From Spirochaetota bacterium (GTDB lineage Bacteria > Spirochaetota > UBA6919 > CBDBPB01), in the NCBI GenBank assembly GCA_965208615.1, contig CBDBPB010000004.1:160001-224000 (forward strand): a DNA stretch of 64,000 nt. The letters are read 5' to 3'. This document shows positions 11,642 through 41,354 of this stretch, in pieces; within the stretch, counting starts at the first letter, position 1; each line of letters starts with the position of its first letter. The notes beneath the pieces were generated by a model. It saw nothing but the letters and a program-made list of their open reading frames with translations, did not search any database and had not been told where the DNA came from. The position numbers were made by a program, and so were the translations under genes.

Positions 11642-12362
11642 TATTAACAAGCGTTTTAGCAAATATAACAAAAAAGGTTTTATCGGGCGATTTTGTTAGT
11701 GAAGGTTTTAGGAAGTTATTTTTTTATTTGTTATTTACTCATAGAGGATTAGCTATACTTTTTGAGGCTTTACATATAAAGTCAATATGTGATATTTAAA
11801 TAATCTGCTCTAAGGCTTTATGGAACGGCAAATCCGTTATCACTTAATAAAGGTGTATAATTCTTAGTCTCAGTAAGGGATTCTTAATAGCTCTCGTAGT
11901 GATGACTACTTGCATAAAAAGTGATATTTTGTGTTCATTGCTGAAGTATTTAAGCAGTACTTAAAGAGCATAAAGGGATAACCTGCTTGAGACAAGAAAA
12001 TAGCTTTTCCGTAAATATCTTAACTTTCCTGTTCCATAAAGAAATCTAAAATCTATCTGCCTTTACGTTATATGTCTTCTTTTTGCCTTGTAGACTTTGT
12101 CATAAATCTATCATAAAATGATAACTGAATTATTAAATAATATCCCCTTAACCTTAATAAAAAAATAAATATACTTACTCGTCTGACTCAAAACCTAAGC
12201 CTACATGTTTATATTTATCCCCATTGTCAATAACCTATTTCACTGCCTTTTTACTTTCATCAGAACACTTTCTATAACTTCATAATCTCTATTTTACTAA
12301 GCTTTAAATAGATAAACTAACTAGAGTACTTTTGAGCTACACTACTAAAACAATTAGTAACA
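11642..12362 (-). mobile_element. dispersed non-coding repeat, copy A (MITE-like, 721 bp)
   Basis: Reverse-complement homologue of 40430-41354 and 22517-23108; imperfect inverted ends 11642-11659 and 12345-12362 (13/18); no ORF >=60 aa. The repeat is directly visible; mobility is inferred. Confidence 0.65.
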
Positions 12363-13203
12363 CCTAAACCTACATGTTTATATCTATCCCCATTGTCAAA
12401 AACCTATTTCATAACCTTTTTACCTTCATCAGAACACTTTCTATAACTTCATAATCTCTATTTTACTAAGCTTTAAATAGATAAACTAACTAGAGTACTT
12501 TTGAGCTACACTACTAAAACAATTAGTAACACCTAAACCTACATGCTTATATCTATCCCCATTGTCAAAAACCTATTTCATAACCTTTTTACCTTCATCA
12601 GAACACTTTCTATAACTTCATAATCTCTATTTTTTAAGCTTTAAATAGATAAACTAACTAGAGTACTTTTGAGCTACACTACTAAAACAATTAGTAACAC
12701 CTAAACCTACATGCTTATATCTATCCCCATTGTCAATAACCTATTTCACTGCCTTTTTACCTTCATCAGAACACTTTCTATAACTTCATAATCTCTATTT
12801 TACTAAGCTTTAAATAGATAAACTAACTAGAGTACTTTTGAGCTACACTACTAAAACAATTAGTAACACCTAAACCTACATGCTTATATCTATCCCCATT
12901 GTCAAAAACCTATTTCATAACCTTTTTACCTTCATCAGAACACTTTCTATAACTTCATAATCTCTATTTTACTAAGCTTTAAATAGATAAACTAACTAGA
13001 GTACTTTTGAGCTACACTACTAAAACAATTAGTAACACCTAAACCTACATGCTTATATCTATCCCCATTGTCAATAACCTATTTCATAACCTTTTTACCT
13101 TCATCAGAACACTTTCTATAACTTCATAATCTCTATTTTACTAAGCTTTAAATAGATAAATTAGCTAGAATACTTTAGTAACACTATCCTAAAACATCGT
13201 AGT
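12194..13203. repeat. tandem array of about six 169-bp units (the left end of the element)
   Basis: CTACATG anchor at 12201, 12370, 12539, 12707, 12876, 13045 (periods 169,169,168,169,169); last unit degenerates after ~13160. Confidence 0.97.
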
Positions 13204-13275
13204 CGTTAATTATATTAAGTTTGAGTCGATTATATCGATAATATACCCTAATTCTATAAACTGGTGGTATAATTT

Positions 13276-14784
13276 ATGAGACTAGGTATAGCTGTAATAT
13301 CTACGCTGAATACAAAATGGGCAAAAACTAATATAGTTGATAATATGTCCTCTGTTGACTACGTTAAAAACCTTGTTGATAATATATATGCAGAAAGGGT
13401 ATGGCATTTTATAAATGAAGATGAACTTGATAAGCCATTTTATGAGTCTATATTTAATAGCTATTCTATGGTAAAAAAGGATGTATATTCATTTTTAACA
13501 AAGTGTATAGAGGTGTTTAACAAACAGGATACAATACTAATTATATATACAGATTCCCCCTTAAACAGTATAGACCTTATAAAACACCTATTAGACCTAC
13601 ACCAAAAAGAAATGACCGAATATACTTTTACAGAAAACTATCCCAATGGAATTGGTGCTGAGGTTATATCCTATGCTACTTTGGAAAAACTTAAAAATAT
13701 ATCATCGGGGAATAATAGTACATTTACTAAAAACTCCATATCAAAGCTAATAAACCTTGATATTAACCACTACGATGTTGATGTATTAATATCCCAAAAG
13801 GATGTTAGAAAAGAACGTCTTAGTCTAACTTGTGATAGTTACTTAAATTATATGGTTGTTAAGGGTTTTATTGACAAGCTCTACGAATTAGGTTATGATA
13901 TATCTACTGATAATATATACTCTATAATTGATGACTATCCACAGCTTATGAGGACTATACCTGCATACGTTGAGATTGAGATTACTAATGACTGTAACTC
14001 CAGCTGTGATATTTGTCCAAGAACTAATATAATGGATAGGCCTATACGCAATATGACTTTGGATGAGTATAAGCAAATAGTTAATGGTCTTAAGGATATG
14101 TGTGATGAGCTTACTATTGCATTAACCCTTATGGGTGAGCCTACTCTACACCCTAACATAGTGGATATTATAGACTTTAGCTTATCTATAAAGGGTATAA
14201 CTCTTATATTAGAGACTAACGGCTTATTATTAGATAATGTTATGGTAGATAATATTATGAAGCTTAAAACTGATAATCTTATAATTATAGTTGCTTTGGA
14301 TAGCCCTAATGCAGAGTTATACAAAGAAATTAGGGGTATTGACGGCTTTAAGACAGTAGAGGATAATATATCATATATTTTAAATAAGTTTGCTAAAAAC
14401 ACTTATCTTCAAATAATAAGGCTAAGGGATAATAATGACCTTTTAGACCTCTACTACAAAAGGTGGAACCAATATAAAGATCATATTATTATGCAAAAGT
14501 ATAACTCCTATAGAAATGATCTATCAGACCTAAAGGCTGTAGACTTATCCCCCCTTAGACGATTCTCATGCTGGCACCTAAAACGGGATATGCTAATATT
14601 AAGTAATGGTACTGTGCCTTTTTGTAAGCAGGATATTAATGGTATTAAGGCTGTGGGTAACGCTTTTGAAGAAGGTGTTAAGGTTTTATGGCAAAACTTA
14701 GAAAAGGCTTTTATAGACGATCACAACGACAATATAAATGACTTTTGCAAAAACTGTGATGAGTGGTTTACATATAATTTTTAG
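13276..14784 (+). CDS. radical SAM/SPASM protein with N-terminal cytidylyltransferase-like domain (spiro-SPASM type)
   Basis: CNSSCDIC, GEPTLHP, ETNG; C-terminal CWHL..FCKQD..CKNCDEW; N-terminal NTP-transferase-like region (ENYPNGIGAEV, RLSLTCD). Confidence 0.85.
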   Translation: MRLGIAVISTLNTKWAKTNIVDNMSSVDYVKNLVDNIYAERVWHFINEDELDKPFYESIFNSYSMVKKDVYSFLTKCIEVFNKQDTILIIYTDSPLNSIDLIKHLLDLHQKEMTEYTFTENYPNGIGAEVISYATLEKLKNISSGNNSTFTKNSISKLINLDINHYDVDVLISQKDVRKERLSLTCDSYLNYMVVKGFIDKLYELGYDISTDNIYSIIDDYPQLMRTIPAYVEIEITNDCNSSCDICPRTNIMDRPIRNMTLDEYKQIVNGLKDMCDELTIALTLMGEPTLHPNIVDIIDFSLSIKGITLILETNGLLLDNVMVDNIMKLKTDNLIIIVALDSPNAELYKEIRGIDGFKTVEDNISYILNKFAKNTYLQIIRLRDNNDLLDLYYKRWNQYKDHIIMQKYNSYRNDLSDLKAVDLSPLRRFSCWHLKRDMLILSNGTVPFCKQDINGIKAVGNAFEEGVKVLWQNLEKAFIDDHNDNINDFCKNCDEWFTYNF

Positions 14785-14808
14785 TTTAACCTAAAACTAA
14801 TATATATT

Positions 14809-14837
14809 TTGACTTTACTATTATTATTTGTTAGTTT
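14809..14837 (+). promoter_or_regulatory. putative promoter of ferritin gene
   Basis: TTGACT-17 bp-TAGTTT with TG extended -10. Confidence 0.4.
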
Positions 14838-14884
14838 TACTTAAAATTATTAATACTTTTATAAATTAAGATAAGGGGAATATA

Positions 14885-15388
14885 TTGATATCAAGTAAAT
14901 TAGCTAAAGAGTTAAACATACAACTAAAAAATGAATATTACTCAGCATACTTTTATATGGGTATAGCTTCATATTTTGCCTCTATAAACCTAGACGGATT
15001 TGAAAAGTTTATGCTTACTCAAACAGAAGAAGAACAATTTCACTGTATGAAGTTCTATAACTATCTTAAGATGAGGGGTATAAAAATTGAGCTTTATAGT
15101 TTGGATCAGCCAAAGTTTGAATTTGACTCCCCAAAGGATGCCTTTAAAGCTGCCTTAGATCATGAAAAGGCGGTATCTGGGTCTATATATAAGCTTATGG
15201 ACATTGCAACTACAGAAAAAGAATATGCTACTGTTAGCTTTTTAAAATGGTTTATGGATGAACAAGTCGAAGAAGAAAGTGTTTTTGAGTCATGGCTATC
15301 TAAACTAAATCAGGTTGGTAATGATGGTGCGGGTTTATTAATGCTAAGCAAAGAGGCTGGAGAGCGTACTTTCACTCCTGATCAATAA
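14885..15388 (+). CDS. ftnA: non-haem ferritin
   Basis: E..SAYFY, EEQFH, HEK, FLKWFMDEQVEEE ferroxidase motifs; TTG start with AAGGGG RBS. Confidence 0.93.
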   Translation: MISSKLAKELNIQLKNEYYSAYFYMGIASYFASINLDGFEKFMLTQTEEEQFHCMKFYNYLKMRGIKIELYSLDQPKFEFDSPKDAFKAALDHEKAVSGSIYKLMDIATTEKEYATVSFLKWFMDEQVEEESVFESWLSKLNQVGNDGAGLLMLSKEAGERTFTPDQ

Positions 15389-15441
15389 ACACTTATTACT
15401 ACTACTTTGTATTTTAATATAAAAATTATAATGGAGGGCTT

Positions 15442-16245
15442 GTGAAAAAATTATTGCTACTATTTAGTATATTTTTAATAATTGCTTGTACTAGTCAAAA
15501 TGTTATACCAAACTCTAGTGAGGTTCTAAATAAAGGGGGTAAAATTGATATAGTATCGTTTTATAAGGATAATCCAAAGTATATTGTTTATTATGATCTA
15601 AAAATGAGAGCTTTTTATGTAAACCTTATAAAGGCTGATAAAAAAAACTCTGATAAAAAAGGGAGTATAAATAAGCCTAAAAACTCTCAAAGCCTATCCC
15701 AACTTGGGGGTAGACCTATAAGTATAAAAAAAGGTTCTAGTAAGGTTGAGTATAAGGATGAGTATACTATAAAGGCTAGGAGTATGCTTGAGAGGTTTAA
15801 TATTAACAATTATTTAATGAAGCATTTTATACTTAAGTTTAAGCAGAGGGAGTCTAATATTACTCTAGGTTTTAATTTGGATGCCTCTAAGAGAGTTGCT
15901 CCTTTTGTGAAACATAGTTCTATCAGCTCCGACAGGGATTTTGCTAATATTAAGGATTCTTTAAATTCCAACTTGGTATTAGAACTTCGTATCCTAAAAC
16001 TTCTTATAGAGGAGGATGAGCAAAGGTTTTTATCTACGTGGAATATTACAATGGTTGCAAAGGGCATTCTTTATAACTTAGATACTAATACAAGGCTTTG
16101 GGAGTCTAGTCCTATAGAGTATCAACTTGAAACGCCTACTTTTTCAAGCTTTAAGGAGTCGAGGAAAAAAAGCTTGCAGGAAAACTTTGAAGATTTATCA
16201 GAAAAGATTGCAGATAAGTTAGTTGATGCCTTTTTTGATAAATAG
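15442..16245 (+). CDS. hypothetical lipoprotein
   Basis: MKKLLLLFSIFLIIAC lipobox-like; GGAGG RBS. Confidence 0.75.
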   Translation: MKKLLLLFSIFLIIACTSQNVIPNSSEVLNKGGKIDIVSFYKDNPKYIVYYDLKMRAFYVNLIKADKKNSDKKGSINKPKNSQSLSQLGGRPISIKKGSSKVEYKDEYTIKARSMLERFNINNYLMKHFILKFKQRESNITLGFNLDASKRVAPFVKHSSISSDRDFANIKDSLNSNLVLELRILKLLIEEDEQRFLSTWNITMVAKGILYNLDTNTRLWESSPIEYQLETPTFSSFKESRKKSLQENFEDLSEKIADKLVDAFFDK

Positions 16246-16250
16246 TTATT

Positions 16251-17144
16251 TTATTTGGATAACTCTTCTTTTAAGCTATTAATGGTTTTATTCTGTTTAA
16301 TTTTAAGTATTATCATATAGATATTTAATATAGTGGCTTCAAATATAAGAAATAGGTCTATTCGGTTAAATGCTGCAAATATCATAATATATGTAACATG
16401 ATTTGTAGACCCTATAAAAGACCACAGTCTTAGTAGACCACTATTTTTTGCTTTATATAGCTGGCTAAAGTTTTCTGATATTTCATACTTATCACTTAGA
16501 TTATTTTTTTTATTGAGTTTTTGTTGAACAGCTGTATAGGCCAAATATATCCTCAATAAAAGCTGATTAAACCACTTATTATTTTCAATAGAGTTAAGTT
16601 CATTTTTAATTAATTCTATTGTAGTACTCTCACTTTCATAGCTTTTCGTTGTATACTTTATATATTCATTACGATAGTAGTCAAAGAATACTGTTTGAAA
16701 GTAGTGTCCAAGTGATGCCGCTATTGCTATTATCAATATTATTAAGCCGTAGTTTTCTAGTCCTTCTATCATTAGTATAGGTTCACTATAGAATTTTAGT
16801 ACAGAGGCAAGATAAATACTAGTAAAAACTAAATAGTCAGAAAGTCCATCTAGTATTCTACCTGCCATTGACCCTCCTGATGGTCTGGTTCTGGCAAGCT
16901 GTCCATCACTACAGTCAAATATATTGGATAGCATTAATAAAAATATACCAGTTATTATATAAGCGTATTCTGAAAAGTATAAAAACCCACCGGATGCTAT
17001 ACCTAATAACAAGGATATAATGGTTAGATGATTTGGCGTTATTGATGTATTAACAACTCCTTTTACTATAAGCCATGCCGCTGGTCTATAAAAGAAGTAA
17101 TCTAGGTGTTCTTCTGTATCATAGGGTTTAAAACTGTGCTTCAT
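16251..17144 (-). CDS. CDP-alcohol phosphatidyltransferase family protein
   Basis: TPNHLT and DCSDGQLAR...GRILDGLSD signature. Confidence 0.9.
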   Translation of the reverse strand: MKHSFKPYDTEEHLDYFFYRPAAWLIVKGVVNTSITPNHLTIISLLLGIASGGFLYFSEYAYIITGIFLLMLSNIFDCSDGQLARTRPSGGSMAGRILDGLSDYLVFTSIYLASVLKFYSEPILMIEGLENYGLIILIIAIAASLGHYFQTVFFDYYRNEYIKYTTKSYESESTTIELIKNELNSIENNKWFNQLLLRIYLAYTAVQQKLNKKNNLSDKYEISENFSQLYKAKNSGLLRLWSFIGSTNHVTYIMIFAAFNRIDLFLIFEATILNIYMIILKIKQNKTINSLKEELSK

Positions 17145-17149
17145 TTATT

Positions 17150-18217
17150 TTAGTAAGTAGGCATTTTTTTAAGGGTTAATTTATTCACAATACTCAGAAC
17201 AGTCTGATTATGTATTTCTGTTCCCAGCGATATTCTTGCATAGCCAATAAAAGACGGTTCAGTAAAGAATTTAATTATTATACCTTCTTTTTTTAGTTCA
17301 CTGTCCAAAGGCTTTTGTATTTTATTTGGTATTTTAACCAGTATAAAGTTTGAGCTAGACTTATATGCAGTTATACCATCTATTTTATTTAGTTCATGGA
17401 ATAGCATTTCTCTATCTTTAATAATAGACTTAACCACTTGACCATAATATCCGTTAGAGTTAAGGGCAGCTACTGCAAGACGTTCAGATATTCTATTAAA
17501 GCCTAAAATCTTATTATAAAACTTCATTCTATCCCTTACTTCAGCCTTAGAAAAAGCGTATCCAATACGCACTCCAGCAAGGGCATAGTATTTTGAGAAA
17601 GAACGTACTACAATTAAGTTACTATATTTTTCTAATAGTTCTATAATTTTATTAGTTGTATCCTCATTAGTGAATCCCCAATAAGTCTCATCAAGACAAA
17701 CTATTCCATCTTTATGTACTTTTAAGAGTTCCTCTAGTTCATTTAGGTCTACGTAATTACCAGTTGGATTATTGGGAGCACAAACTAATATTAATTTTGA
17801 ATTATATTTTTTTTTATATTCCAGTATAGTTTTAATATTGGTTATAAACTCTGTTCCTTTTTGATCAAGGGGATAGTTAATTGGATTAGCATTTCTTTGT
17901 TCCACAAGGGTATTATAGTACCACCATGACTTAGCAGGTAGAAGTACATTATCTCCCTGGGATATATATAGAGTGAAAAGTGTTTTTATAATATCTTCAG
18001 CTCCATAGCCTAAGATTATATCCTCAACGGATATATTAAATCTTTTAGCTATTTCTTGTTCTATAACCCCGATACTACTGCGAGAGTAATAAATAAAGTC
18101 ATCAATTGATATATTTTTTACTACATCATAACAATCTGGTGCTGGACCGTATAGATTTTCATTTTTATTTAGTTGTATCATATTTTGACCAGTTTTTTTC
18201 ATTAAGTTAGTCTCCAT
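17150..18217 (-). CDS. PLP-dependent class I/II aminotransferase or decarboxylase (HisC/CobD-like)
   Basis: NENLYG, PNNPTG, DETY, RSFSKYYALAGVRIGY. Confidence 0.85.
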   Translation of the reverse strand: METNLMKKTGQNMIQLNKNENLYGPAPDCYDVVKNISIDDFIYYSRSSIGVIEQEIAKRFNISVEDIILGYGAEDIIKTLFTLYISQGDNVLLPAKSWWYYNTLVEQRNANPINYPLDQKGTEFITNIKTILEYKKKYNSKLILVCAPNNPTGNYVDLNELEELLKVHKDGIVCLDETYWGFTNEDTTNKIIELLEKYSNLIVVRSFSKYYALAGVRIGYAFSKAEVRDRMKFYNKILGFNRISERLAVAALNSNGYYGQVVKSIIKDREMLFHELNKIDGITAYKSSSNFILVKIPNKIQKPLDSELKKEGIIIKFFTEPSFIGYARISLGTEIHNQTVLSIVNKLTLKKMPTY

Positions 18218-18435
18218 ATTATAAATCTATATTTATTTTCTAAAATACAAAATAGTTATCATGCTAGCTTAAAAGAAGGCTAAAGTTTATAATAAGTATT
18301 TATATAAATAATACAAAACTTTTAAAAGTCAATTTACTATTTTTTGCTTATTTTTTTATACTATAAAGCTTCGTTTAAAAAACAATAATAACAATACTCT
18401 AGTTTATAGTTATTGTATAATTCCTGTTAAACCCT

Positions 18436-19545
18436 ATGACTAATACTAAAGAAGAAAACCCAGACTACTTATCAAAGCAGATTATTACTTATATAGGCAG
18501 TAAAAGGGCATTACTACCCTTCATTGGAAAGGGGATTAATATTATATTAAAAAGGCTTAACAAAAAAAAGCTAAAAATGTTTGATTGTTTTTCTGGCTCT
18601 GGCATTGTAGCAAGATATTGTAAGCAGTTTTCTGAGAAAATTATAGTTAATGACATTGAAAAATACTCTGAGATAATTAATAAGTGTTACCTAACTAACA
18701 ACTCATCCTTGGATATAAAAAGCCTTAGAGACTTATATAATACAATTAGGCATAAACTTAAAGAGTTCCCTCTTGAAAAGGGTATAATATCTGAGTTTTA
18801 TGCTCCAAAAGACGATAAACATATTGAATATGGAGAAAGAGTATTTTATACCACAAGGAATGCTGGATATATTGACTCAGTAATAAAATATATTAATGAC
18901 GTCCCAAAGGATATAAGGCATTTATTTATAGCCCCTTTGCTATCAGAGGCCTCTATACATGTAAATACTGCTGGTACATTTAAAGGGTTTTATAAAAACT
19001 CTTATGGCATTGGACAGTTTGGTGGGAGCAATGGTGATGCATTATTCAGGATTAAAGGCAATATAGACTTACCATTTCCTATTTTTAGTAATTTTGATTG
19101 TGAGTTTAAAATATATAACGGACCTGCTAATGACATAGTAAAAATAGCTGAAGAGACAGATGTAGCATATATTGATCCTCCTTACAACCAGCATCCTTAT
19201 GGTTCTAACTATTTTATGTTAAATATATTATGCGATTATAAAAACCCTAATAAAATTAGCAGGGTATCCGGAATACCCTCAAATTGGAATAGATCACCAT
19301 ATAACAAAAAACCTGATTATTATAAGGCTTTTTCTAATTTGTTATTTGACATAAAGGCAAAATATTTATTAATATCTTTTAGCTCAGAAGGCTTTATTGA
19401 AGCTGAATCTATGTTAAGTCTTCTAAAAAAGATAGGCAGGGTTAAGGTTTTAGAGAAAAAGTATAATACTTTTAGAGCTAGTAGAAATCTTAAGAATAGA
19501 CCCACACACATAAAAGAGTACCTTTATATACTGGAAAAGGCTTAA
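18436..19545 (+). CDS. orphan adenine-specific DNA methyltransferase (D12/Dam-like class)
   Basis: YIGSKR, DCFSGSG (motif I), YIDPPY (motif IV). Confidence 0.9.
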   Translation: MTNTKEENPDYLSKQIITYIGSKRALLPFIGKGINIILKRLNKKKLKMFDCFSGSGIVARYCKQFSEKIIVNDIEKYSEIINKCYLTNNSSLDIKSLRDLYNTIRHKLKEFPLEKGIISEFYAPKDDKHIEYGERVFYTTRNAGYIDSVIKYINDVPKDIRHLFIAPLLSEASIHVNTAGTFKGFYKNSYGIGQFGGSNGDALFRIKGNIDLPFPIFSNFDCEFKIYNGPANDIVKIAEETDVAYIDPPYNQHPYGSNYFMLNILCDYKNPNKISRVSGIPSNWNRSPYNKKPDYYKAFSNLLFDIKAKYLLISFSSEGFIEAESMLSLLKKIGRVKVLEKKYNTFRASRNLKNRPTHIKEYLYILEKA

Positions 19546-19548
19546 ATC

Positions 19549-20865: not shown

Positions 20866-21032
20866 TATTTTTCCTAAAAAAAGTTATAAAATTATAATAT
20901 AACAAAATTATAGGCAATATATAAAATAGATTTATATAGATATTATATTAGCAAGGGTTTTATAGGGTATAATGTTAATAAGAAATCCCCTAATAATGTG
21001 GATTAAACATTATTAATAAGATAGAAATATTT

Positions 21033-21065: not shown

Positions 21066-21083
21066 AGTAGGTTTTTTAATAGA

Positions 21084-22337
21084 CTAGTTATCTATAACGT
21101 GTACCTTTCTTTCTTTATCCTTAAGGCTATCATCTATTATATAACTATCTTCGGGTTGAACAGACCTTCTTGTTCGACTTGGTTTTCCATATACATAAAT
21201 CTGCGGCTTTGTTTTTATACGCCAGGGATGATAATGAGTCCTATAAAAATATTGATAATAAAAATCTTTGATAAATACATTTATATTATTAATAGGTTTA
21301 TTAATATTAATAGTTTTATAACCCGGGTATTGTGTATAACCATTACCACCATAAACTCCTTTTATTGCTTGAAGTTCGTAGTCATGGGGTTCATCAGGGC
21401 TAGCTGGACTTAAATGGCTATACATAATAAGCCTTCTAAGGTCTATTAGGCCAGATAGTGACTCTAAACTAGGGATAGGGGTAGGGCTACGGGGAAGCTC
21501 TGGCCTGTTTGGGTGTCGTAAACCAAGAAGATGTCCTATTTCATGAGTCATTACTATTTGATTTTTATTTCTATTTTTATTTTTATTTTCAAACTCTTCA
21601 AACTTTGCCTTATTTATTATAACAGTTGCACTGTCTATTATGTTGCCGTAAGTGGTTATTATTGTTATCCCCAGTGTCTTAGGAGTAAAGTTACAGTATT
21701 TTTTTTCTAGCTCTGATATTCCATAACCATTACAATTATAATCTGCTAAAGTAACCCAAAAGCTTGGCCTTAAATACATATTATTACCTTTTTTTATAAG
21801 TACCCTTTTTGTAGTATATTTAGCGTTAGGTATATTTGATTTCCATTTGCTAACAGCATTATTTGTATAGTTGTATAGTTTTGTTTGTTGAACTTTATTT
21901 TCGCCAAGATTTACCTTGCAATCTTTTGGGTCCCACTCACCATTACACTTAGCCTTAGTAGTCTTATCACAAGTAACAACGCCGATATAAGTAGTTGTAC
22001 CTTTTTCTATCTTACAAACTTTAAGGAACTTATCTTCTAAGTATTTTAATCTTTTTTCTGCTTCTTTTAATCTTTTTTCTGCTTCTTTTAATCTTTTTTC
22101 TGCTTCTTTTAATCTTTCTTTTGCTTCTGCTGTTTTTGATTCATCAGAATTTGCGTTTTCAACCTCTTTCTCTGCATCTTCAACCTCTTTCTCTGCATCT
22201 TTAACCTCTTTATCTGCTTTGTCTAACAGACTTTCAACATTTTTATCACAATTACCCAGAGCCTCACAGGATATATCATCCTCTCCGCATCCTATTAGTA
22301 AAAGTAAAGTTAGTAAAATAAAGAATATCTTTTTCAT
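21084..22337 (-). CDS. lipoprotein zinc metalloprotease (metzincin/matrixin-like) with heptad-repeat stalk
   Basis: LLLIGC lipobox; HEIGHLLGLRH zinc motif and downstream Met-turn (LIMYS); EAEKRLK and DAEKEVE repeats. Confidence 0.8.
   Translation of the reverse strand: MKKIFFILLTLLLLIGCGEDDISCEALGNCDKNVESLLDKADKEVKDAEKEVEDAEKEVENANSDESKTAEAKERLKEAEKRLKEAEKRLKEAEKRLKYLEDKFLKVCKIEKGTTTYIGVVTCDKTTKAKCNGEWDPKDCKVNLGENKVQQTKLYNYTNNAVSKWKSNIPNAKYTTKRVLIKKGNNMYLRPSFWVTLADYNCNGYGISELEKKYCNFTPKTLGITIITTYGNIIDSATVIINKAKFEEFENKNKNRNKNQIVMTHEIGHLLGLRHPNRPELPRSPTPIPSLESLSGLIDLRRLIMYSHLSPASPDEPHDYELQAIKGVYGGNGYTQYPGYKTININKPINNINVFIKDFYYQYFYRTHYHPWRIKTKPQIYVYGKPSRTRRSVQPEDSYIIDDSLKDKERKVHVIDN
22044..22218. 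repeat. two blocks of 21-bp coding tandem repeats (about 4x EAEKRLK, 3x DAEKEVE-like)
   Basis: TTTTAATCTTTTTTCTGCTTC and TTCAACCTCTTTCTCTGCATC units. Confidence 0.9.
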
Positions 22338-22516: not shown

Positions 22517-23108
22517 TGTTAATAATTGTTCTAGTGGTATAGAGCAAAAGTATTCTAAGTTAGTTTATCTTTTTAAACTTCCTAAAATGCGGATAAAATC
22601 TATTTAGCAATTGTGTTATAATAATTTTTTATCTAAAAGCTATAGTAATTAGTAACTGGGGAGGATGGCGTTTTTTTTTTTTGATATTAGGTTATTTAAG
22701 GGGATATTATTTAATAATTTAGTTATCATTTTATGATAGAGTTATGGTTAGTCATACAGGGTAAAAAGGCAAGACATATAACGTAAAGGGAAGTGAATTC
22801 CAGATTTCTTTGTGGAACAGGAAAGTTAAGATATTTATGAAAAAGTTATTTTCTTGTGTCAAGCAGGTTATCCCTTTATGCTCTTTAAGTGCTGTTTAAA
22901 TGCCTTAGCAATGAACACAAAATATCACTTTTTATGCAAGTAGTCATCACTACGAGAGCTATTAAGAATCCCTTACTGAGACTAAGGATTATAGACCTTT
23001 ATTAAGTGATAACGGATTTGCCGTTCCATAAAAGCTTAGAGCAGATTATTGGAATATTCTATATTGACTTTATGTGTAAAACTTCAGAAAGTATACCAAT
23101 CCTCTATG
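22517..23108 (+). mobile_element. dispersed non-coding repeat, copy B (left end plus conserved core; other flanks diverged)
   Basis: 22517-22580 matches the element's left end; 22697-23108 is near-identical to 40844-41255; only weak right-end similarity out to ~23230. Confidence 0.6.
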
Positions 23109-23436
23109 TGTTAAATACCTTAAGCTGACTCCTATAAAAAGTAACTTGCGTCTTGAACAACATAATAAAACCTCTCGTAATATCACTAAAATATTCCATA
23201 ATAACTAATAATATATAGCAAAACTACTTATATATAAATATTGACAAATTAAAAAAATTATTTATATTTTTAATTTTTATGTTATTATAACTATTAGGTT
23301 ATTAAAAAAAAATACTAACCCTTATAATGACTAATATATATTAACTCCTTAGCCTGTTTTATAATAACTTGTTAAAAATATCTAATAGAAATATCACTTG
23401 ACAATATATACATAAATACCTTAGCTAACTAATAAA

Positions 23437-24468: not shown

Positions 24469-24480
24469 TAAGTAGGTAAT

Positions 24481-30803: not shown

Positions 30804-30809
30804 TTAAGT

Positions 30810-32877: not shown

Positions 32878-32887
32878 TCATATAAAG

Positions 32888-32918
32888 ATAAGCCTCCCCT
32901 TAACAAAGGAAGGCTTAT
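32888..32918. terminator. hairpin downstream of ORF 32104
   Basis: ATAAGCCT...AGGCTTAT stem with inner CCTT/AAGG; weak U tract. Confidence 0.45.
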
Positions 32919-33243
32919 AAACAGGGTAGTAAAATAGTTTTTGATGGAGAAGTAAATTAACTCTAACTTTTTTATTTTTAAACGCATTATAACAACCCAA
33001 ATAGTTTAATTTTATTCCAAAAGTATTATTTTTTTTTTAAATTATCAAAAATATATTACTGTATAGTTAGTTTTTTATAAAATGTTGGTTTTTCGTGGAA
33101 CCTAAAATTATATTCTAAGTGTTATAAAATTGAGTTTCTAATATTTAGAAAAAAATAGTTAATTTTAAAATATTAGAAGCTGTACAATAACCTATACGCC
33201 AAACTTAAAAAAAATTAATAAACTTAAAACAAGGAGTGTATTT

Positions 33244-33489
33244 ATGGAAATTAAAGCAGATGATTTATTAGATGCCAGAGGACTAACTTGTCCTATGCCA
33301 ATTATTAAGGCTAAAAAAGCCATTGAAAAATTAAAAGAAGGTAATATCCTTGAAGTTTTGGGAACTGATCCAGGATCAGCGGCTGACTTTAATGGATGGT
33401 GTAAACAAACCGGCCATATCCTTGAAGAGGCTAACGAAATAGAAAAAGACGGACAAAAAGTTTTTCAGTTCTTTATACGACGTAAATAA
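33244..33489 (+). CDS. tusA: sulfurtransferase TusA family protein
   Basis: LDARGLTCPMP, TDPGS..D..WC; AAGGAG RBS. Confidence 0.9.
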   Translation: MEIKADDLLDARGLTCPMPIIKAKKAIEKLKEGNILEVLGTDPGSAADFNGWCKQTGHILEEANEIEKDGQKVFQFFIRRK

Positions 33490-33712
33490 TCCCTTTTAAA
33501 ATGGGTGTATACAACTTAAACCTTTATAATTATTAAAAAGCTAGTACAGCCTTTTTTGGGTATGCAATATAGTAGGATTTAGATTATCCTTCCATAATAA
33601 ATTATTTTTCCTCGTAAATATTATTTAATTTATTATATATATATAATCGTATTTAACTGAAAATAACTATCCCTAGTCATTGTATACCTTAACACATATT
33701 AGGAAGACTTTT

Positions 33713-35159
33713 ATGAGGTTTTATATAATAGTTTTTCTTTGTATAATATTAAGTCAGTTGGCCTGGACAAATAATAAAATAAAACCTTATACCATTACCC
33801 CTTTAGAAGGAGTACGGAAAATAAGAAAGGCTAACCCTAATATATTTAAATATATATCATATAAAGCTTTAATGGTATTAAGCAGGTATATTAGGAATAA
33901 ATCCAGCTTAAAGGGTATATCTCCAATTAAATATTTGTTGGGGGAAAATGATAAATGGCATAAAGGTATTATTAAAGCTTCTGTAAAAGGTCTTATAAAC
34001 AAAGATCCGAGGGTTAGACTGTTTTGTATGCACCTTTTATTTAAAATGTCCATAAAAAGAGAGTGGATAGAAAAAGATATACTAAAAACTATAGAAAATG
34101 AAACCGTAGATCACTATTACTACTTTAAAAATATATACGGCAATACCCAATACCAAAACATAAAAGATTGGCTATTCTTATTTCTAAATATAGATAACCA
34201 ACTTATACTCCTTAGCCCTAAACCTAATTCTTCTACTTATAAAAACTCTATTGGCTTCGACTGGATAAACATTTATGACGCATATAAATACGAACTATAT
34301 ATTAATGATATACTATATTACAGCGGAAAGGATTCTTTTGTAAAAAAGGTTAACCTGCATAATAATAAATCATCATACTCCCCGTATAGGTGGACTGTAA
34401 TTGCTAAAGATGTAAACGGTAAAATTATTAAATCAAGCTATTCTCTTTTTGACATAAAAAAACTTAATAAACCCAACTTAATTATTAATCAAAAAAACCC
34501 TCCAAGCTTTAAATGGGAAAAAATAAAAAGTATTACTTACTACAAACTATACATATATAAAAAAGGTGACAAAAAACATAAACTTTTGTATAACGGTAAT
34601 AAAGTGTATTATAACCATAAACAACCACTAGCAAAAGGAAAGTATTTATGTTATAATAGTTGCCGGTAACGAGGATCAGACTATAAAAAGTGCGGAAGTA
34701 TTATTAAATATAGATAAATCAAAAGTAATGGATAAACCACTAAAACCAGATAAGCCTAAGGAAACTGATGAGCTATACTTCGATATTGACGAATTTAAAA
34801 AACTAGAAGATGATCCCCTTAGTGAATCAAGGTTAAAAGAGCCTAAACCTGATAAAGCTAAGCCTGATAAAGCTAAGCCTGATAAAGCTAAACCTGATAA
34901 AGCTAAACCTGATAAAGCTAAACCTGATAAAACTAAGCCTGATAAAACTAAGCCTGATAAAGCTAAACCTGATAAAGCTAAGCCTGATAAAGCTAAACCT
35001 GATAAAACTAAGCCTGATAAAGCTAAACCTGATAAAGCTAAACCTGATAAAGCTAAACCTGATAAAACTAAGCCTGATAAAGCTAAACCTGATAAAGCTA
35101 AACCTGATAAAACTAAGCCTGATAAAGCTAAACCTGATAAAGTCGATTCTATTCAGTAG
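33713..35159 (+). pseudogene. secreted protein (HEAT-like segment, FN3/Ig-like domains, KPDKA tail) split by a +1 frameshift near 34646
   Basis: Track ORFs 33680-34669 and 34728-35159 join in frame on deleting one T from 34645-34647 (GKYYVIIVAGNEDQ...); signal-like MRFYIIVFLCIILSQLAW at ATG 33713. Confidence 0.7.
34845..35144. repeat. 20 x 15-bp coding tandem repeat, KPDK(A/T/V)
   Basis: AA(A/G)CCTGATAAA(G/A)CT units counted from the translation. Confidence 0.97.
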
Positions 35160-36396
35160 GTGACTTTGGGATAAAATTAAAAATCAGTCCTATTATCCAC
35201 AAAACTCCGAAAACAATAATAGTAAAGGCGCATAATAAAGCAACATAACGAGGATCAAAATAATTAATAGCTAATCCGGCTAATAATGAAGATAACATTA
35301 AAAATAAAGTAGATATACCTTCATCATGAGCAAAAACTCTTCCCCTTAAATTTGGTGGTATGGTCTTCTGTAGTGTTACTCTGGTGAATAGCCACAAATT
35401 AGAACTGGATATAGTAGCAAAAACTAATACAATAGCTCCTAAAGATATTATAGGCATTATACTAAAAATACCATAAAAAATGCCATACAAACAAAAGGCA
35501 AATCCAATATACCAAACTACACTAACTTTACTCTGTCCAACTATAGCCTTCCCAACAAAGCTCCCTAACACTACTCCCAATCCTCTACACATATACAAAA
35601 TACCAATTCCAAAACTACCAGCATCAAACACATCCCTCGCAAATACCGTATGTAATGTAAGTATAGCTCCGCCTCCAATAGCCCATCCTGGTTTAACAAG
35701 CAAAATAGCAATAATAAACCTATCCCTAATTATATAAGAAATACCGAGTTTAAAGTCAGTCCAAAACTTCTTAAGAAAAGAGATAGACTGGCTATAATCA
35801 CTTTTATTATATTGAGGCTCATCCACGGCTATAAAGCTAATCAATATAGCTGACATAAAAAAGGTAGCAGAATTAACAACTATAGCTATATGAAAACCAA
35901 ATACCGTAATAGCAATACCACCAAGTAATGCTCCTAATGAAAGCATTATACCCCAAGTCATTTGTCCTAAGGCATTAGCAGTACCAAGCTCATCAGAAGT
36001 CAAAATAACCGGCAATATGGATAGTTTTGCAGGTAAAAAAAAAGAAGAGGCCGAAAATACTAAAAACTCAACTATAAACAATAACCACAATATATCAGGA
36101 CTAATAAATAAAAAAACTAATACTAAGTATCCTCTTACTAAATCGCTAATTATAAGAATGCTTTTCTTGCTAAACCTGTCAATTATAACACCAGCAAATG
36201 GACCAAGAATAAACTGGGGAAGTAAAGAACAAACTAAAACTACACCAAGATAAACTCTATTATCCTCGTGGATAGCAATATAGTCAAGTAAGGCGATTCT
36301 GTTAAACCAATCCCCCACCAGACTAATAGATTGAGCTATCCACAATAACCTAAATAAAACATTACCTTTAAGCACCTGTCTATAAGATAATAGCAT
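35149..36396 (-). CDS. MFS transporter (DHA3/macrolide-efflux-like)
   Basis: About 12 TM; GDWFN, GVIIDRFSKK, LRGRVF. Confidence 0.9.
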   Translation of the reverse strand: MLLSYRQVLKGNVLFRLLWIAQSISLVGDWFNRIALLDYIAIHEDNRVYLGVVLVCSLLPQFILGPFAGVIIDRFSKKSILIISDLVRGYLVLVFLFISPDILWLLFIVEFLVFSASSFFLPAKLSILPVILTSDELGTANALGQMTWGIMLSLGALLGGIAITVFGFHIAIVVNSATFFMSAILISFIAVDEPQYNKSDYSQSISFLKKFWTDFKLGISYIIRDRFIIAILLVKPGWAIGGGAILTLHTVFARDVFDAGSFGIGILYMCRGLGVVLGSFVGKAIVGQSKVSVVWYIGFAFCLYGIFYGIFSIMPIISLGAIVLVFATISSSNLWLFTRVTLQKTIPPNLRGRVFAHDEGISTLFLMLSSLLAGLAINYFDPRYVALLCAFTIIVFGVLWIIGLIFNFIPKSPTE

Positions 36397-36402
36397 AAAA
36401 TG

Positions 36403-37890
36403 TTAAACTAAACCCTCTATAAACCTAACTAAACTACTAACCATTATCCCAGTTCCACCCTTAGAATAATATTCATCCCTATTAGACCATGCAGTCCCTG
36501 CAATATCAAGATGTATCCACGGTTTATTATCCACAAACTTCTCCAAGAATGCGGCCGCAGTAATAGCACCTGCTGATCTATCCCCCACGTTTGCGACATC
36601 AGCAATATCGCTCTTAATCTGATCATGATACTTTTTAAATAGAGGTAACTGCCATACTCTTTCTCCAACATCATCACAAGCCTTTTTAAACTTATCCATT
36701 AACTCTTGATTATTCCCCATCATCCCAGTGGTAATCTCACCCAAGGCAACCACACATGCACCAGTTAATGTAGCCAAGTCTATTATTTTAGTTGCACCAT
36801 GCTCAACAGCATAACAAAGAGCATCAGCTAAAATTAATCTACCTTCTGCATCAGTGTTCAGTATTTCAATTGACTTACCATTCATAGCAGTAACAACATC
36901 CCCAGGCTTATTGGCACTACCAGACGGCATATTCTCAGCAACAGGAATAACAACAATAACCTCAACATTAAGCTTAAGCCTGGATATAGCTACCATAGCA
37001 CCTATAACAGTTGCAGCACCAGCCATATCACCTTTCATTTCATGCATATTTTTAGGAGGCTTAATAGATATCCCACCAGAATCAAATGTAATACCCTTAC
37101 CAACCAAAGCTATAACATCATCAGACTTTTTATTTTCAGGCTCATAGTACATTGTTATTAGCTTCTCAGGCTCAACTGATCCCTTTGAAACAGATAGAAA
37201 TGACCCCATACCCATCTTTTCAAGCTCATAGTGATCAAAAATATTAACCCTAATATCATTACCTCTGGCAAACCTAAGAGCCTCATTAGCCAAAATAGCT
37301 GGTGTACACTTATTCCCGGGTTGATTAACCATATTCCTTGCAAAACCCATTGACTCACCTATTATCCTACCTCTATCTAACATATCACTGCTTATAGGCT
37401 TATTAGAACAAGAAATGATTTTAATTGTATCAACATTAACTTTGAACTCTTCATTATCATCCCTATTTTTATATAAATCAAAGGAATAATCCCCAACCAT
37501 AATACCCTCTATCAAACAAGGTATCCTAAGAATATGCTCGTCTATACCCCTTATAAAGAAAGACATATTAATAAATCCACGCTTTTTAGCCTCACGAATG
37601 CCTTTAGCACCAAAAGACTTATGCTCCTCTATAGTGTATTCAGCTTCTTTGCCGCATCCAATTAATAATAGGGACATTTTAGAGTTAGGCATAAATATTG
37701 TATTACCTATATTCCCTTTCATTTCTTTTCTGTCAACACTGGATTGTAATAAACCTGCTGTTAGTGAGTCAAGCTCAATAAGGGTTTTATTAGTTAATTT
37801 ATTATCCCTTATATCCTCTTTGAAAAAGTTAATGATTATAAGGTCAGTCTTAACCGACTCAAAGGATTCATTAGAAGCCTCAAATTTCAT
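36403..37890 (-). CDS. pepA: leucyl aminopeptidase (M17)
   Basis: GKGITFDSGG, MKGDMAG, NTDAEGRL, DLATLTGA; ATG 37890 after AGGAGGAG. Confidence 0.95.
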   Translation of the reverse strand: MKFEASNESFESVKTDLIIINFFKEDIRDNKLTNKTLIELDSLTAGLLQSSVDRKEMKGNIGNTIFMPNSKMSLLLIGCGKEAEYTIEEHKSFGAKGIREAKKRGFINMSFFIRGIDEHILRIPCLIEGIMVGDYSFDLYKNRDDNEEFKVNVDTIKIISCSNKPISSDMLDRGRIIGESMGFARNMVNQPGNKCTPAILANEALRFARGNDIRVNIFDHYELEKMGMGSFLSVSKGSVEPEKLITMYYEPENKKSDDVIALVGKGITFDSGGISIKPPKNMHEMKGDMAGAATVIGAMVAISRLKLNVEVIVVIPVAENMPSGSANKPGDVVTAMNGKSIEILNTDAEGRLILADALCYAVEHGATKIIDLATLTGACVVALGEITTGMMGNNQELMDKFKKACDDVGERVWQLPLFKKYHDQIKSDIADVANVGDRSAGAITAAAFLEKFVDNKPWIHLDIAGTAWSNRDEYYSKGGTGIMVSSLVRFIEGLV

Positions 37891-38047
37891 ACTACTCCTC
37901 CTTAACAAAAAATACTATCTTTAATAATAAGTAGAACATAATTAAAAGTCTTTTACTTGCTAATATTTTTTAAATAAAAACAAAAATATTTTGACCATTA
38001 CAACTTATAAAGCTAACTTATAGACCTACTAACAACGGAGACCAAAA

Positions 38048-39808
38048 TTGAGCTATGACTTTATTCAGCTTATAATTTTAAATACTGGTATTCTTCTTAT
38101 ACTGGCTCTTACTGCTGGTAAGTTTGTCTCACTAATGAATATACCAAAAGTTACCGGATATTTACTTGTTGGAATATTATTAGGTCCTTCTGTATTAGGA
38201 TATTTTTATCCGGCTTATGGTAATTTCATACTTAACAAAAAGATACTTGAGACATATAACATTATTACTCAAGTTGGACTCGGATTAATTGTATTCAACA
38301 TTGGTGGAGAGTTTAAGCTGGAAAACGTTAAAAAGCTTGGTAAAAATGTATTTTGGATATCTATATTCGAAATTATCTTTACCACACTAAGTGTTTTAGC
38401 CCTTAGTTTTATAGCCTTAAAGCTATTCTATCCTAATTTTGGCGACTCAACTTTTATATACGCTATTTTATTTGGCGTTATTAGTATTGCCACTGCACCT
38501 GCTGCCACTCTTTTAGTTTTACGGGAATATGAATCTCAAGGACCTTTAACAAATCATATTTTGGTATTAGTGGGTCTAAACAATATTATATGTATTGTTG
38601 TTTTCAAGATTATGTTTTCTGGCTTTATTAGTGAGGGACATAGTTTTATTATGCCTATTTTAGAGGTGTTAGCCTCTATGTTAATGGGAGTTATTATCGG
38701 GTTAATAATTAGTTTTATTGAGAAGTCCGTAGAAAAGCCTGTCGAACTCATTATGCTCGCAACAGGCGGGATTGCTTTTAATATTGGAATAGCTTTTATT
38801 ATTGAAGATATAATTCACATATCCAATATTCTATCCATTTTGTTTATGGGTATTACTATGGTTAACTCATCCACAAAAGGAGATTCTACATTTAAGGCTC
38901 TAAAAGAGGTAGACTTACCCATATACGCCATATTCTTTGTATTAGCCGGTGCAAACCTACATATTGACGAGTTTTTAAATGGAGGTATACTATTTATTGT
39001 TTACGTTATAGGAAGAGCATTTGGTAAAATATACGGTTCTTTTTTTGGTGTTAAGCTTTCTAACATGTTCAAAAAGCTTGGAAACAATATAGGATATGGA
39101 TTACTACCCCAAGCTGGAGTAGCTATTGGTCTTGCGTTAATAATGAAAAGGGACGATCCATATATGGGTGGGATTATGTCTTCGGTTATATTATCTGCTG
39201 TTATGGTATTTGAGTTAATTGGACCTTTATTTACTCGATTAGCAGTAATACGCTCGGGCGAGGTAAAAGAAATATCTTTATCAAAAAGGTTATCCCATAA
39301 GGCTAAATATAGGTATTTACGAGTATTGGCAAGATTAAGGCATTCCCTTGGTATTCAAAAGTGGAAGAAAAAACGAGATAAGACTATATTATGCAAAGAG
39401 CTAATGAGAAGTTCTGTTGAGGCCATACACTCAGACCTAGCATTTGATGAGGTATTAAAGTTTGCATCGGAATATAAATATGATCAGTTCCCCGTTATTG
39501 ATGAGGATAATCATTTTATTGGAACTATATCCTATCAGGAGATTAGAGATATTCTATTAGATATAGAGTTTGCTAATCTTATTATAGCACAGGATATGGT
39601 TGATGAGAATCCACTTGTTGCCTATCCAAGTGATAGTTTGAAAAAGCTTTTAATGTTATTCCACGACTCAAAAGAAGAATTAGACTATCTCCCGGTAATT
39701 GACGAACATAAACCACCTCATCTAATCGGCATGGTAACACAAAAAGACGTAATTGAGGTATATAGGAGCCTTAAAGACAGTAACAGCCTAAAAGAGTTTG
39801 ACTTATGA
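38048..39808 (+). CDS. cation:proton antiporter with C-terminal CBS pair
   Basis: ATAPAAT, FFVLAGA, LLPQAGVAIGL; two CBS domains at the C-terminus. Confidence 0.88.
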   Translation: MSYDFIQLIILNTGILLILALTAGKFVSLMNIPKVTGYLLVGILLGPSVLGYFYPAYGNFILNKKILETYNIITQVGLGLIVFNIGGEFKLENVKKLGKNVFWISIFEIIFTTLSVLALSFIALKLFYPNFGDSTFIYAILFGVISIATAPAATLLVLREYESQGPLTNHILVLVGLNNIICIVVFKIMFSGFISEGHSFIMPILEVLASMLMGVIIGLIISFIEKSVEKPVELIMLATGGIAFNIGIAFIIEDIIHISNILSILFMGITMVNSSTKGDSTFKALKEVDLPIYAIFFVLAGANLHIDEFLNGGILFIVYVIGRAFGKIYGSFFGVKLSNMFKKLGNNIGYGLLPQAGVAIGLALIMKRDDPYMGGIMSSVILSAVMVFELIGPLFTRLAVIRSGEVKEISLSKRLSHKAKYRYLRVLARLRHSLGIQKWKKKRDKTILCKELMRSSVEAIHSDLAFDEVLKFASEYKYDQFPVIDEDNHFIGTISYQEIRDILLDIEFANLIIAQDMVDENPLVAYPSDSLKKLLMLFHDSKEELDYLPVIDEHKPPHLIGMVTQKDVIEVYRSLKDSNSLKEFDL

Positions 39809-39814
39809 TAAAAC

Positions 39815-40315
39815 CTAGAATATATGAGATAAATATCTCCCAGGCATCCTAAAACGCATAACCGATAATGGCTTTAGAAACTTATCGTAGTTTATTAGGT
39901 CATAGGCTATAAGACTACGTTTATCGTCGTAATAGCTTATTTTATGCAGTATATCTGACATAATACTATCCACATTACCATAAGAATAAATTGCATAAGC
40001 TTTTAGACTATTCTGTTGATAAAACTCATACCTATCTATCATCTGGGACAGGTTAGAGTAATACACTTTATAGTAGCTATCTTTTTCTTTATTCAAGGTT
40101 TTTAGCTTTTGATCTATCTCATAAGGGGAACCATGTATCTCTTTATCAAATCTGATATTAACATATTTGTAGTTATTCTTCGATGTAATATTTTTTTCTT
40201 TAAAATACTTAATATAATAAGTCGGCTTAAATACTTTAATCTTAGGTTTCTTATCAGAACAGCTAAACAGGCTTATTATAACTAATATAAGAATTAGAGC
40301 TTTAATCTTTGTCAT
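39815..40315 (-). CDS. hypothetical lipoprotein
   Basis: MTKIKALILILVIISLFSC lipobox; ATG 40315 preferred over the track's 40375. Confidence 0.7.
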   Translation of the reverse strand: MTKIKALILILVIISLFSCSDKKPKIKVFKPTYYIKYFKEKNITSKNNYKYVNIRFDKEIHGSPYEIDQKLKTLNKEKDSYYKVYYSNLSQMIDRYEFYQQNSLKAYAIYSYGNVDSIMSDILHKISYYDDKRSLIAYDLINYDKFLKPLSVMRFRMPGRYLSHIF

Positions 40316-40429
40316 ATTAATACCAATATATTTAAAAGTTAGTATCCATTTTCGGATCAATACCCCAAAGCACATTAATCAAAATTAACATTTTTATTAT
40401 ATTTGTTAACCTTATAATTGCTAAGTTAT

Positions 40430-41354
40430 TGTTAGTAACTGTTCTATTGGTGTAGATCAAAAGTATTATAAGGTAATTCATCTATCTAAAGCTTAAAAAA
40501 TAGAGATTATCAAGTTATAGAAAGTGTTTTGATGAAAGTAAAAAGGTTATAAAATAGGTTGTTGACAATGGGAATACATATAAACATGTAGGTTTAGACT
40601 TTGAGTTAGGGGTTTATAAGCATATTTATTTTTTTAATGTTAAGGGGATATTATTTAATAATAAAGTATTATAAGGTAATTCATCTATCTAAAGCTTAAA
40701 AAATAGAGATTATCAAGTTATAGAAAGTGTTTTGATGAAAGTAAAAAGGTTATAAAATAGGTTGTTGACAATGGGAATACATATAAACATGTAGGTTTAG
40801 ACTTTGAGTTAGGGGTTTATAAGCATATTTATTTTTTTAATGTTAAGGGGATATTATTTAATAATTCAGTTATCATTTTATGATAGAGTTATGACGAGTC
40901 ATACAAGGTAAAAAGCAATACATATAACGTAAAGGGAAGTGAATTCCAGATTTCTTTATGGAACAGGAAAGTTAAGATATTCATGAAAAAGTTATTTTCT
41001 TGTGTCAAGCAGGTTATCCCTTTATGCTCTTTAAGTGCTGTTTAAATGCCTTAGCAATGAACACAAAATATCACTTTTTATGCAAGTAGTCATCACTACG
41101 AGAGCTATTAAGAATCCCTTACTGAGACTAAGAATTATAGACCTTTATTAAGTGATAACGAATTCGCCGTCCCATAAAGGCTTAGAGCAGATTATTGGAA
41201 TATTCTATATTGACTTTATATGTAAAACTTCAAAAAGTATAGCTAATCCTCTATGAGTAAATAACAAATAAAAAATAACTTCCTAAAACCTTCACTAACA
41301 AAATTGCCCGATAGAATGTTTTCTTTGTTATATTTGCTAAAACGTTTGTTAACA
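40430..41354 (+). mobile_element. dispersed non-coding repeat, copy C (722 bp plus a 203-bp internal duplication)
   Basis: Homologous end to end with copy A; begins TGTTAGTAAC, ends GTTTGTTAACA. Mobility is inferred. Confidence 0.65.
40460..40865. repeat. 203-bp tandem duplication (apparently exact)
   Basis: 40460-40662 repeats at 40663-40865; no differences seen by eye. Confidence 0.95.

Follow-up and report, generated by a model that had tools for sequence, protein, structure and literature searches.

What are the three similar non-coding repeats that lie in this 64-kb stretch of the genome of a Spirochaetota bacterium (the whole stretch that was analysed, below called the window), and by what means did they come to be there? 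A sequence-only reading of the window had described them as copies of a ~720-bp, high-copy, non-autonomous element with inverted TGT...ACA ends and conserved cargo, belonging to no recognised family and resembling elements moved by DDE-type transposases. The high-copy, non-autonomous, cargo-bearing part of this description proved largely right: the repeats are members of a family with a conserved interior, 41-46 core loci and 75 loci bearing any module across the source genome (2.46 Mb, 31% G+C, coding share about 87%, nine contigs, cited here by C numbers). The best explanation, to which we assign a probability of about one half, is a cargo-bearing, non-autonomous inverted-repeat family resembling MITEs (miniature transposable elements with inverted repeats), which would have spread through non-coding DNA and would now be decaying into arrays and fragments.

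Copy numbers come from two queries run against the whole genome, the 721 bp of window copy A and a 549-bp core-plus-tail segment, with all matches clustered into loci. The first query returned 142 matches. With the second, the core of ~375 bp is present over at least 300 bp at 41 loci and over at least 180 bp at 46 loci; clustering places some element module at 75. These counts agree with the claim of a high-copy, non-coding repeat, as does the absence, at all 46 core loci, of any open reading frame (ORF) of at least 80 amino acids (aa) within the core or overlapping the locus, although coding sequence takes up about 87% of the genome. In the one public run found to contain the region, probably from the source sample, short-read contigs reach a summed depth of 247 on the core and about 4.5 on unique flanks, a pile-up that fits a many-copy repeat and is not used as a copy count. 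The contigs of this run break at the repeats, and no RNA run was listed for the organism. In the assembly, the right end of C3 and the left end of C4 stop inside the element family (2 of 18 contig ends), and the right end of C4 and the left end of C1 stop in repetitive lipoprotein genes; the element and lipoprotein repeats probably cause these breaks.

The family repeat is real, as had been read, but it is a patchwork of modules with tandem arrays and not a fixed unit of ~720 bp. In element coordinates, which follow copy A on the minus strand (position 1 is window 12362 and position 721 is window 11642), module a occupies positions 1-78 and opens with a 22-bp left inverted repeat (TGTTAcTAATTGTTCTAGTAGT), module c occupies positions 126-220, and the core positions 219-593. 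Two unlike right tails, A and B, both finish in an inverted motif. Type A (positions 594-719) carries a subterminal inverted motif about 50 nucleotides (nt) inside in addition to a terminal one, while type B has a length of about 100 nt and terminates in CTAGAACATTTGATAACA. The main form measures 650-720 bp, plus arrays, and the minimal form 122-142 bp. In very many copies modules a and/or c are tandemly repeated on the left side, with periods of 74-318 bp, including 15 x 74 bp at C4:91067, 13 x 74 bp at C4:130938, 9 x ~146 bp at C2:80764, 4 x 318 bp at C1:406052, 4 x 263 bp at C7:333864, 3 x 201 bp at C1:41779, and 5.8 x 169 bp in copy A.

The TGT...ACA inverted ends are also real, the end consensuses matching far beyond chance. 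The left-end consensus TGTTAcTAATTGTTCTAGTaGT (n = 78 occurrences) agrees at 18 of 22 positions with the consensus of the B-type right end (TGTTATCAAATGTTcTAGTAGG, n = 20) and at 16 of 22 with the A-type subterminal motif (n = 15), levels that random genomic 22-mers reach at ~1e-5 and 6.5e-5, respectively. The A-type terminal motif agrees with the left consensus at about 14 of 22 positions by hand count. A 21-nt version of the motif has 157 matches genome-wide, 111 of them within family loci, against 19 in a shuffled genome.

Self-contained mini-elements of 122-142 bp hold little beyond two such 22-bp ends (TGTTAyyAAwnGTTCTAGTAG). Examples lie at C4:380253-380384, C4:381097-381231, C4:586375-586506, C1:261865-262006, C7:40286-40420, and C2:80762-80903, and some large copies begin on the left with a complete mini-element of 142 bp. 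The A-type tail closes with ~42 bp (TGTTAnCAAACGTTCTAATAAATATAAyAAA...) that stand alone at about seven sites, one of which is in the window, where a solitary ~42-bp unit akin to the A-type terminal unit (TGTTAGCAAAAGTTCTAATAAAGATAGC...) lies in an intergenic spacer at 59185..59226 on the plus strand. At C4:380253-381231, a local duplication of ~850 bp has a 132-135-bp mini-element at each end and lies just upstream of a core copy at C4:381979-382541.

All three window copies lie where the sequence-only reading had placed them, and the end motifs it named are correct (right end of copy A at 11642-11659, left end of copy B at 22517-22534, left and right ends of copy C at 40430-40447 and 41337-41354). 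Compared by eye, the left and right ends of copy A match at 13 of 18 positions. The same reading's statements that the copies contain no ORF, that the window contains no transposase, and that no clear target-site duplication is present all hold. Copy C (40430..41354, plus strand) is complete and two-ended, with the left repeat at 40430-40447, the subterminal motif at 41283-41300 and the terminal motif at 41337-41354. It includes an exact 203-bp tandem duplication (40460..40865, plus strand) and a core at 40850..41225 on the plus strand, in which the best-conserved ~90 nt fall at about 41068-41157 and a 20-codon ORF at 40983-41045.

The boundaries of the two other window copies had to be redrawn. 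The whole locus of copy A (11642..13196, minus strand) consists of the right tail, the core, module c, and then an array of 169-bp left-end-module units. Its A-type right end, like that of copy C, has two inverted motifs, both on the plus strand: the terminal motif (TATTAACAAGCGTTTTAG, 11642..11659) opens a ~42-51-bp terminal unit that is found alone elsewhere, and the subterminal motif (TGTTAGTGAAGGTTTTAG, 11694..11711) is a better partner of the left repeat than the terminal one. The conserved core follows at 11770..12144 on the minus strand (element positions 219-593). The array, 169 bp x 5.8 on the minus strand, is placed at 12193..13176 by Tandem Repeats Finder (TRF); each unit opens with TGTTACTAATTGTTTTAG, and the motif starts on the minus strand at 12362, 12531, 12699, 12868, and 13037. 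Homology reaches 13196, the outermost unit being degenerate. Because each unit opens with the same motif and the array continues outward to ~13196, copy A does not end at position 12362, as had been read; this position is a boundary between units inside the array. Copy B begins at 22517 on the plus strand, as had been read, and its extent is corrected to 23117: module a (22517-22588) is joined to element positions 194-631 (22673-23117), and the copy stops at position 631 without a right end.

What lies between the ends is conserved, as the sequence-only reading had proposed for its cargo. Column variability in the core is 0.024-0.049 over the central ~90 nt and 0.10-0.17 in the flanks, and the core reads as an imperfect palindrome over about 300 nt. 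Module c corresponds to the 3' end of a family of repetitive genes for surface lipoproteins; at least five genes of this family bear a solitary c module on their 3' end, in the same orientation (C2:78727-80679, C2:88749-90524, C2:115736-118189, C2:153539-154408, and C4:588593-589648). At C1:280316, a bare 22-bp end directly joins the truncated leader-side CRISPR repeat that heads a seven-repeat array, with a core copy with a B-type end downstream. The genome has two CRISPR arrays (C1:280391-280820 and C1:341879-342302), each with seven 30-bp repeats (GTTTCAATTCCTTATAGGTACGGTTAAAAC) and spacers of 35-37 nt, and the spacers of both arrays match neither the element nor the genome.

The context of the core loci was tallied by hand. 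Fifteen loci are in divergent spacers (31.6% of non-coding bp), 27 between tandem genes (12 co-oriented and 15 opposite; 60.5% of non-coding bp), three in convergent spacers (7.9% of non-coding bp), and one at a contig end. This spread in proportion to non-coding DNA, together with the lack of an orientation preference, argues against a dedicated, oriented regulatory role. The placement is what would be seen for selfish DNA if only insertions outside genes were tolerated. The genes next to the copies are for the most part unrelated and of housekeeping function (dnaK, rpsT, flgG, mdh, fabH, and fur, for example).

Mean pairwise identity among the cores is about 85%. Each core resembles its nearest neighbour with a median identity of 94.5% (maximum 98.7%), and the closest relatives are often on the same contig. 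Judged from this divergence, the family appears old and decaying, not freshly expanding. A comparison with related genomes, proposed along with the sequence-only reading, did not find the element in 40 relatives or in two public collections: the core is missing from the 40 relatives (at order-to-phylum distance, the nearest in the same order), and its pattern was not found by exact-pattern scans, which miss diverged copies, of one genome per species and of JGI metagenomes, nor was a second exact 24-mer found in the metagenomes. A related carrier is hinted at by a second sample of the same study, some of whose contigs can be aligned to module a and the core, differing in 3-7 letters over 41-151 aligned bases.

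The family is thus built on a MITE-like scaffold of 122-142 bp with 22-bp ends, which has taken up cargo between those ends, namely the lipoprotein 3' tail (module c) and the ~375-bp palindromic core; later decay of the copies took the form of truncation, tandem amplification of end modules, and tail exchange between copies. The protein that moved the element would have bound or cut at the 22-bp motif, and the best-conserved 90 nt of the core may be a cis-acting sequence kept by selection or gene conversion. The only candidate mobiliser seen is a Mu/IS21-like DDE transposase with an AAA+ ATPase.

Several observations weigh against the MITE-like explanation. No two cores are identical, so nothing points to very recent movement. 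The seven or eight copies beside lipoprotein genes may have been carried along with those genes by segmental duplication. Insertion footprints are also scarce. Both outer ends are recognisable at 15 of 44 core loci, and none of these 15 two-ended copies is flanked by a direct repeat of at least 4 bp (one has 3 bp and one 2 bp). The mini-elements also have no short duplication, and a long flanking duplication is found in only 1 of the 15. DDE-type transposition is not supported: the two-ended copies have no short target-site duplication either within or across copies. The absence of short target duplications implies that movement was not ordinary short-stagger cut-and-paste, or that many copies spread by recombination. 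When flanks were paired across copies, no left flank matched another copy's right or inverted flank, as flank-swapping recombination would leave. The left flank ends in T in 12 of the 15 two-ended copies and the right flank begins with A in 10, read by eye; either a repeat that extends one base further or a weak preference for certain targets may lie behind this.

The single long duplication belongs to the copy at C4:91067-92790, which comprises the 15 x 74-bp array, a core, and an A-type tail. The 3' part of fur is directly duplicated around this copy, over 246 bp at 99.6% identity, and the duplicates directly touch the left tip TGTTAG... and the right tip ...GTTAACA, which confirms the element tips to the base. 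Within C4:90623-93042, the upstream fur-family gene is intact, and its last ~246 bp are repeated past the insert, giving a 93-aa ORF that is a duplicate Fur C-terminus.

The search for a mobilising enzyme gave a candidate, which speaks for the MITE-like explanation, but no transposase gene with matching ends, which speaks against it. Transposase and recombinase families were searched in six frames across the whole genome, and the listed families rve, DDE_Tnp_1 (PF01609), Resolvase, PF07282, Y1_Tnp, IS110, Transposase_mut, and DDE_3 gave no matches, other insertion sequence (IS) families not being searched. The negative for rve (PF00665) proved false, because a Pfam scan at the protein level found a divergent rve-type transposase, and the remaining family negatives are therefore soft. 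Pfam and PHROGs protein scans covered about 80 proteins of the ~2,150 ORFs in the genome. Among the families tested, the only tyrosine recombinases are one XerD-like and one XerC-like protein; a search for dif-like sites was swamped by noise in this AT-rich genome.

The divergent transposase lies in a 5.2-kb block that an all-against-all ORF comparison found twice, 98.5% identical, at C3:10639-15823 and C7:425842-431041. Its 532-aa DDE protein scores 23.4 bits against rve (below the cut-off), matches IS481/IS21/ISNCY at E = 4e-23 to 5e-11 and the PHROG 'transposase' at E = 3e-35, and also matches retroviral integrase cores in the PDB; its matches to the rve, IS481/IS21 and PHROG families are weak. 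A 282-aa AAA_22 ATPase matches the PHROG 'DNA transposition protein', and the block further encodes a GemA homologue, a DUF3102 protein, and two unknown ORFs. The block is a Mu-like early region with a Mu/IS21-like transposase and ATPase pair. Phage structural genes were not found beside the C3 copy. The two block copies differ in their repressor-side flanks, and a third, diverged relic lies near C7:168600-170700. The one hint of a tie to the element is a truncated copy with one 42-bp unit that lies 236 bp from the C7 block. Matching ends of the block itself were not found, inter-block homology stopping in ordinary sequence with no inverted motif pair around either copy. No element with the family's ends encloses a transposase gene, also when motif sites outside the family loci are included. 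The sequence-only reading had proposed looking for a transposase gene with the same termini; the search yielded none, only the Mu/IS21-like pair, an enzyme of the sort which that reading had associated with TGT...ACA ends, without demonstrable matching ends.

Of the other explanations, the one that survives best, although we consider it rather unlikely, is an intergenic mosaic that never transposed. Here the 22-bp motif would be the target of a DNA-binding or recombination protein of the host, and the modules would have spread by homologous recombination, gene conversion, and unequal crossing-over. There is precedent in the neisserial intergenic mosaic elements (NIMEs), repeat units flanked by 20-bp dRS3 inverted repeats for which spread by recombination has been proposed, as it has for the enterobacterial bacterial interspersed mosaic elements (BIMEs). 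The lack of short target duplications would be expected of such a mosaic, as would the free recombination of modules and tails, the arrays with their periods of 74 to 318 bp, and the frequent location of nearest relatives on the same contig. The 246-bp flanking duplication could likewise be a product of recombination, and XerC-/XerD-like proteins are the only recombinases among the families tested. However, recombination alone could not reach a new site without homology already present there, and no such homology is seen, while the family occupies 46 sites by unrelated genes with sharp outer boundaries at the motif and includes self-contained two-ended units of 122-142 bp.

It is improbable, in our estimate, that the family represents an undescribed kind of inverted-repeat transposon. 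Such an element would make no short staggered cut, would sometimes duplicate hundreds of bp of target, and would capture and amplify gene ends, with the Mu/IS21-like pair or Xer acting on 22-bp TGTTA... sites and the core serving as an enhancer or hairpin.

Somewhat less probable still is that the core is itself a gene present in many copies, either for a structured non-coding RNA or for a type I toxin-antitoxin-like cassette composed of a 20-aa peptide and an antisense RNA. The strong conservation of the interior invites this explanation, and the core is able to form a ~300-nt hairpin. On folding, the minus strand of copy C reaches z = -2.67 (0 of 100 shuffles as good), but its plus strand reaches only z = -0.5, and in only 13 of 40 copies does the minus strand fold better than the plus strand. 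In a consensus fold of the plus strand, both partners have changed in six pairs (23 cells), against 0-6 pairs and 0-17 cells in shifted-partner controls, and the minus-strand consensus fold has no pairs with both-side changes. The 20-codon ORF of the core (M[KE]KLFSC[VIL]KQVIPLCSLS..) follows an AGGAAAG and keeps its length in 35 of 41 copies. However, its variability at codon positions 1, 2, and 3 is 0.108, 0.063, and 0.039; position 1 is the most variable and position 3 the least, the opposite of the pattern in a translated gene, so the ORF has no coding signature. The sequence-only reading had recognised no described family, and Rfam 15 likewise has no match, with no hits at the gathering score in the whole window and none at E <= 10 in 11400-13400, around copy A. 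No tRNA or tmRNA was found by the scan for these genes, and a terminator scan of copies B and C found none. The orientation of the core relative to adjacent genes is also unbiased. Overall, the Rfam, coding, and covariation tests provide no good evidence for an RNA or peptide gene.

Very unlikely is a third possibility, that the copies are invertible promoter switches, flipped by a shared tyrosine recombinase and toggling adjacent genes, as in the mpl system of Mycoplasma penetrans and the Mpi system of Bacteroides. Inverted repeats without target duplication, the presence of both orientations among the loci, and the two Xer-like tyrosine recombinases, the only ones among the families tested, would all be in keeping with such switches, and at 42 of 45 loci one or more of the adjoining genes begins next to the element. 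Yet the context classes follow their share of non-coding DNA, without enrichment at gene starts. In copy C, promoter-like sites number four against a shuffle mean of 7.1. Copy B has 17 against 8.1 in shuffles, mostly beyond the element, and we draw no promoter claim from them. Only 15 of 44 loci keep both ends, no dedicated recombinase was seen (XerD-/XerC-like proteins only, and no resolvase-family match), and inversion leaves the dispersal of the copies unexplained.

We give equally little credence to the repeat being the shared upstream region of the variable lipoprotein gene family, copied with those genes: seven or eight copies do lie 85-390 bp from the 5' ends of family members, always arranged divergently in the same way, and module c is the 3' tail of the same family, but ~38 of the 46 copies are beside unrelated genes (among them dnaK, rpsT, flgG, mdh, fabH, and fur), so that this is contradicted as a general explanation and tenable only for the subset beside lipoprotein genes.

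The gene content of the window is that of an ordinary chromosome (birA, coaX, mreBCD, PBP2, rodA, the suf operon, fliM, der, and fabH). The best match of its MreB, at 72%, is to a metagenome-assembled genome of an uncultured member of the Spirochaetia, and identity to Leptospira is 67-68%. Placed by this protein, the host is an uncultured, deep-branching member of the Spirochaetota, and it is the sole representative of its family among the genomes compared. The divergent neighbour of copy B is a lipoprotein-like gene (21084-22337), a member of the mosaic surface-lipoprotein family, in which two 21-bp tandem blocks (4.0 and 2.9 units) lie at 22044-22217. Elsewhere in the window, a tandem repeat of 15 bp x 20 (CTAAACCTGATAAAG) at 34843-35142, within the ORF at 34728-35159, would give a five-residue protein repeat.

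Keyword searches of the literature returned no description of such an element, which is not proof that it is unpublished. If the MITE-like family is truly mobile, it would show how a very small element with inverted repeats can become larger by taking in the tails of genes and palindromic cargo, and how it can seed long-period tandem arrays that shape the intergenic DNA of a little-known spirochaete lineage. The family accounts for most of the large intergenic spacers and may explain some assembly breaks. The missing insertion footprints and the one 246-bp target duplication point to a non-textbook mechanism of movement, and the potentially novel point is the spread of inverted repeats without short target duplications while adjacent gene ends are captured and amplified.

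Among known systems, elements of the Mu/IS21/Tn7 type share with this family the TGT...ACA tips and the repetition of the end motif, which is present more than once on the right and often many times on the left, and a Mu-like A/B/GemA block is present twice in the genome. In contrast to those elements, the family has no 4-8-bp target duplication, the transposase block has no matching ends, and the extra left motifs arise from tandem repeats of whole modules, not from closely spaced sites. That the conserved internal segment might act like the enhancer of a mini-Mu is speculation by analogy.

Long, variable direct repeats of 8-514 bp are reported for IS1634 and IS1549, together with a terminal consensus that begins with C, not TGT (PMC2266710). 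The copy with a 246-bp target duplication touching both tips recalls these long repeats. Unlike the IS1634 family, ours has long repeats in 1 of 15 two-ended copies, TGT tips, and no match in the genome to DDE_Tnp_1 (PF01609), a soft negative.

The bacterial MITEs Correia/NEMIS, RUP, and Nezha are likewise non-coding, multi-copy, and intergenic, with terminal inverted repeats of ~20 bp and no internal transposase. The family described here differs in its main form of 650-720 bp or more, in its 375-bp palindromic cargo and captured gene tail, and in the tandem arrays of its end modules; it also has no short target-site duplication, and the genome yielded no parent IS sharing its ends. The NIMEs and the BIMEs of E. 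coli are, like this family, intergenic patchworks of modules bounded by ~20-bp inverted repeats, in varied combinations and often near surface-protein genes. Compared with these mosaics, the spirochaete family has much longer units, one dominant conserved core, and clear two-ended units that include a minimal form.

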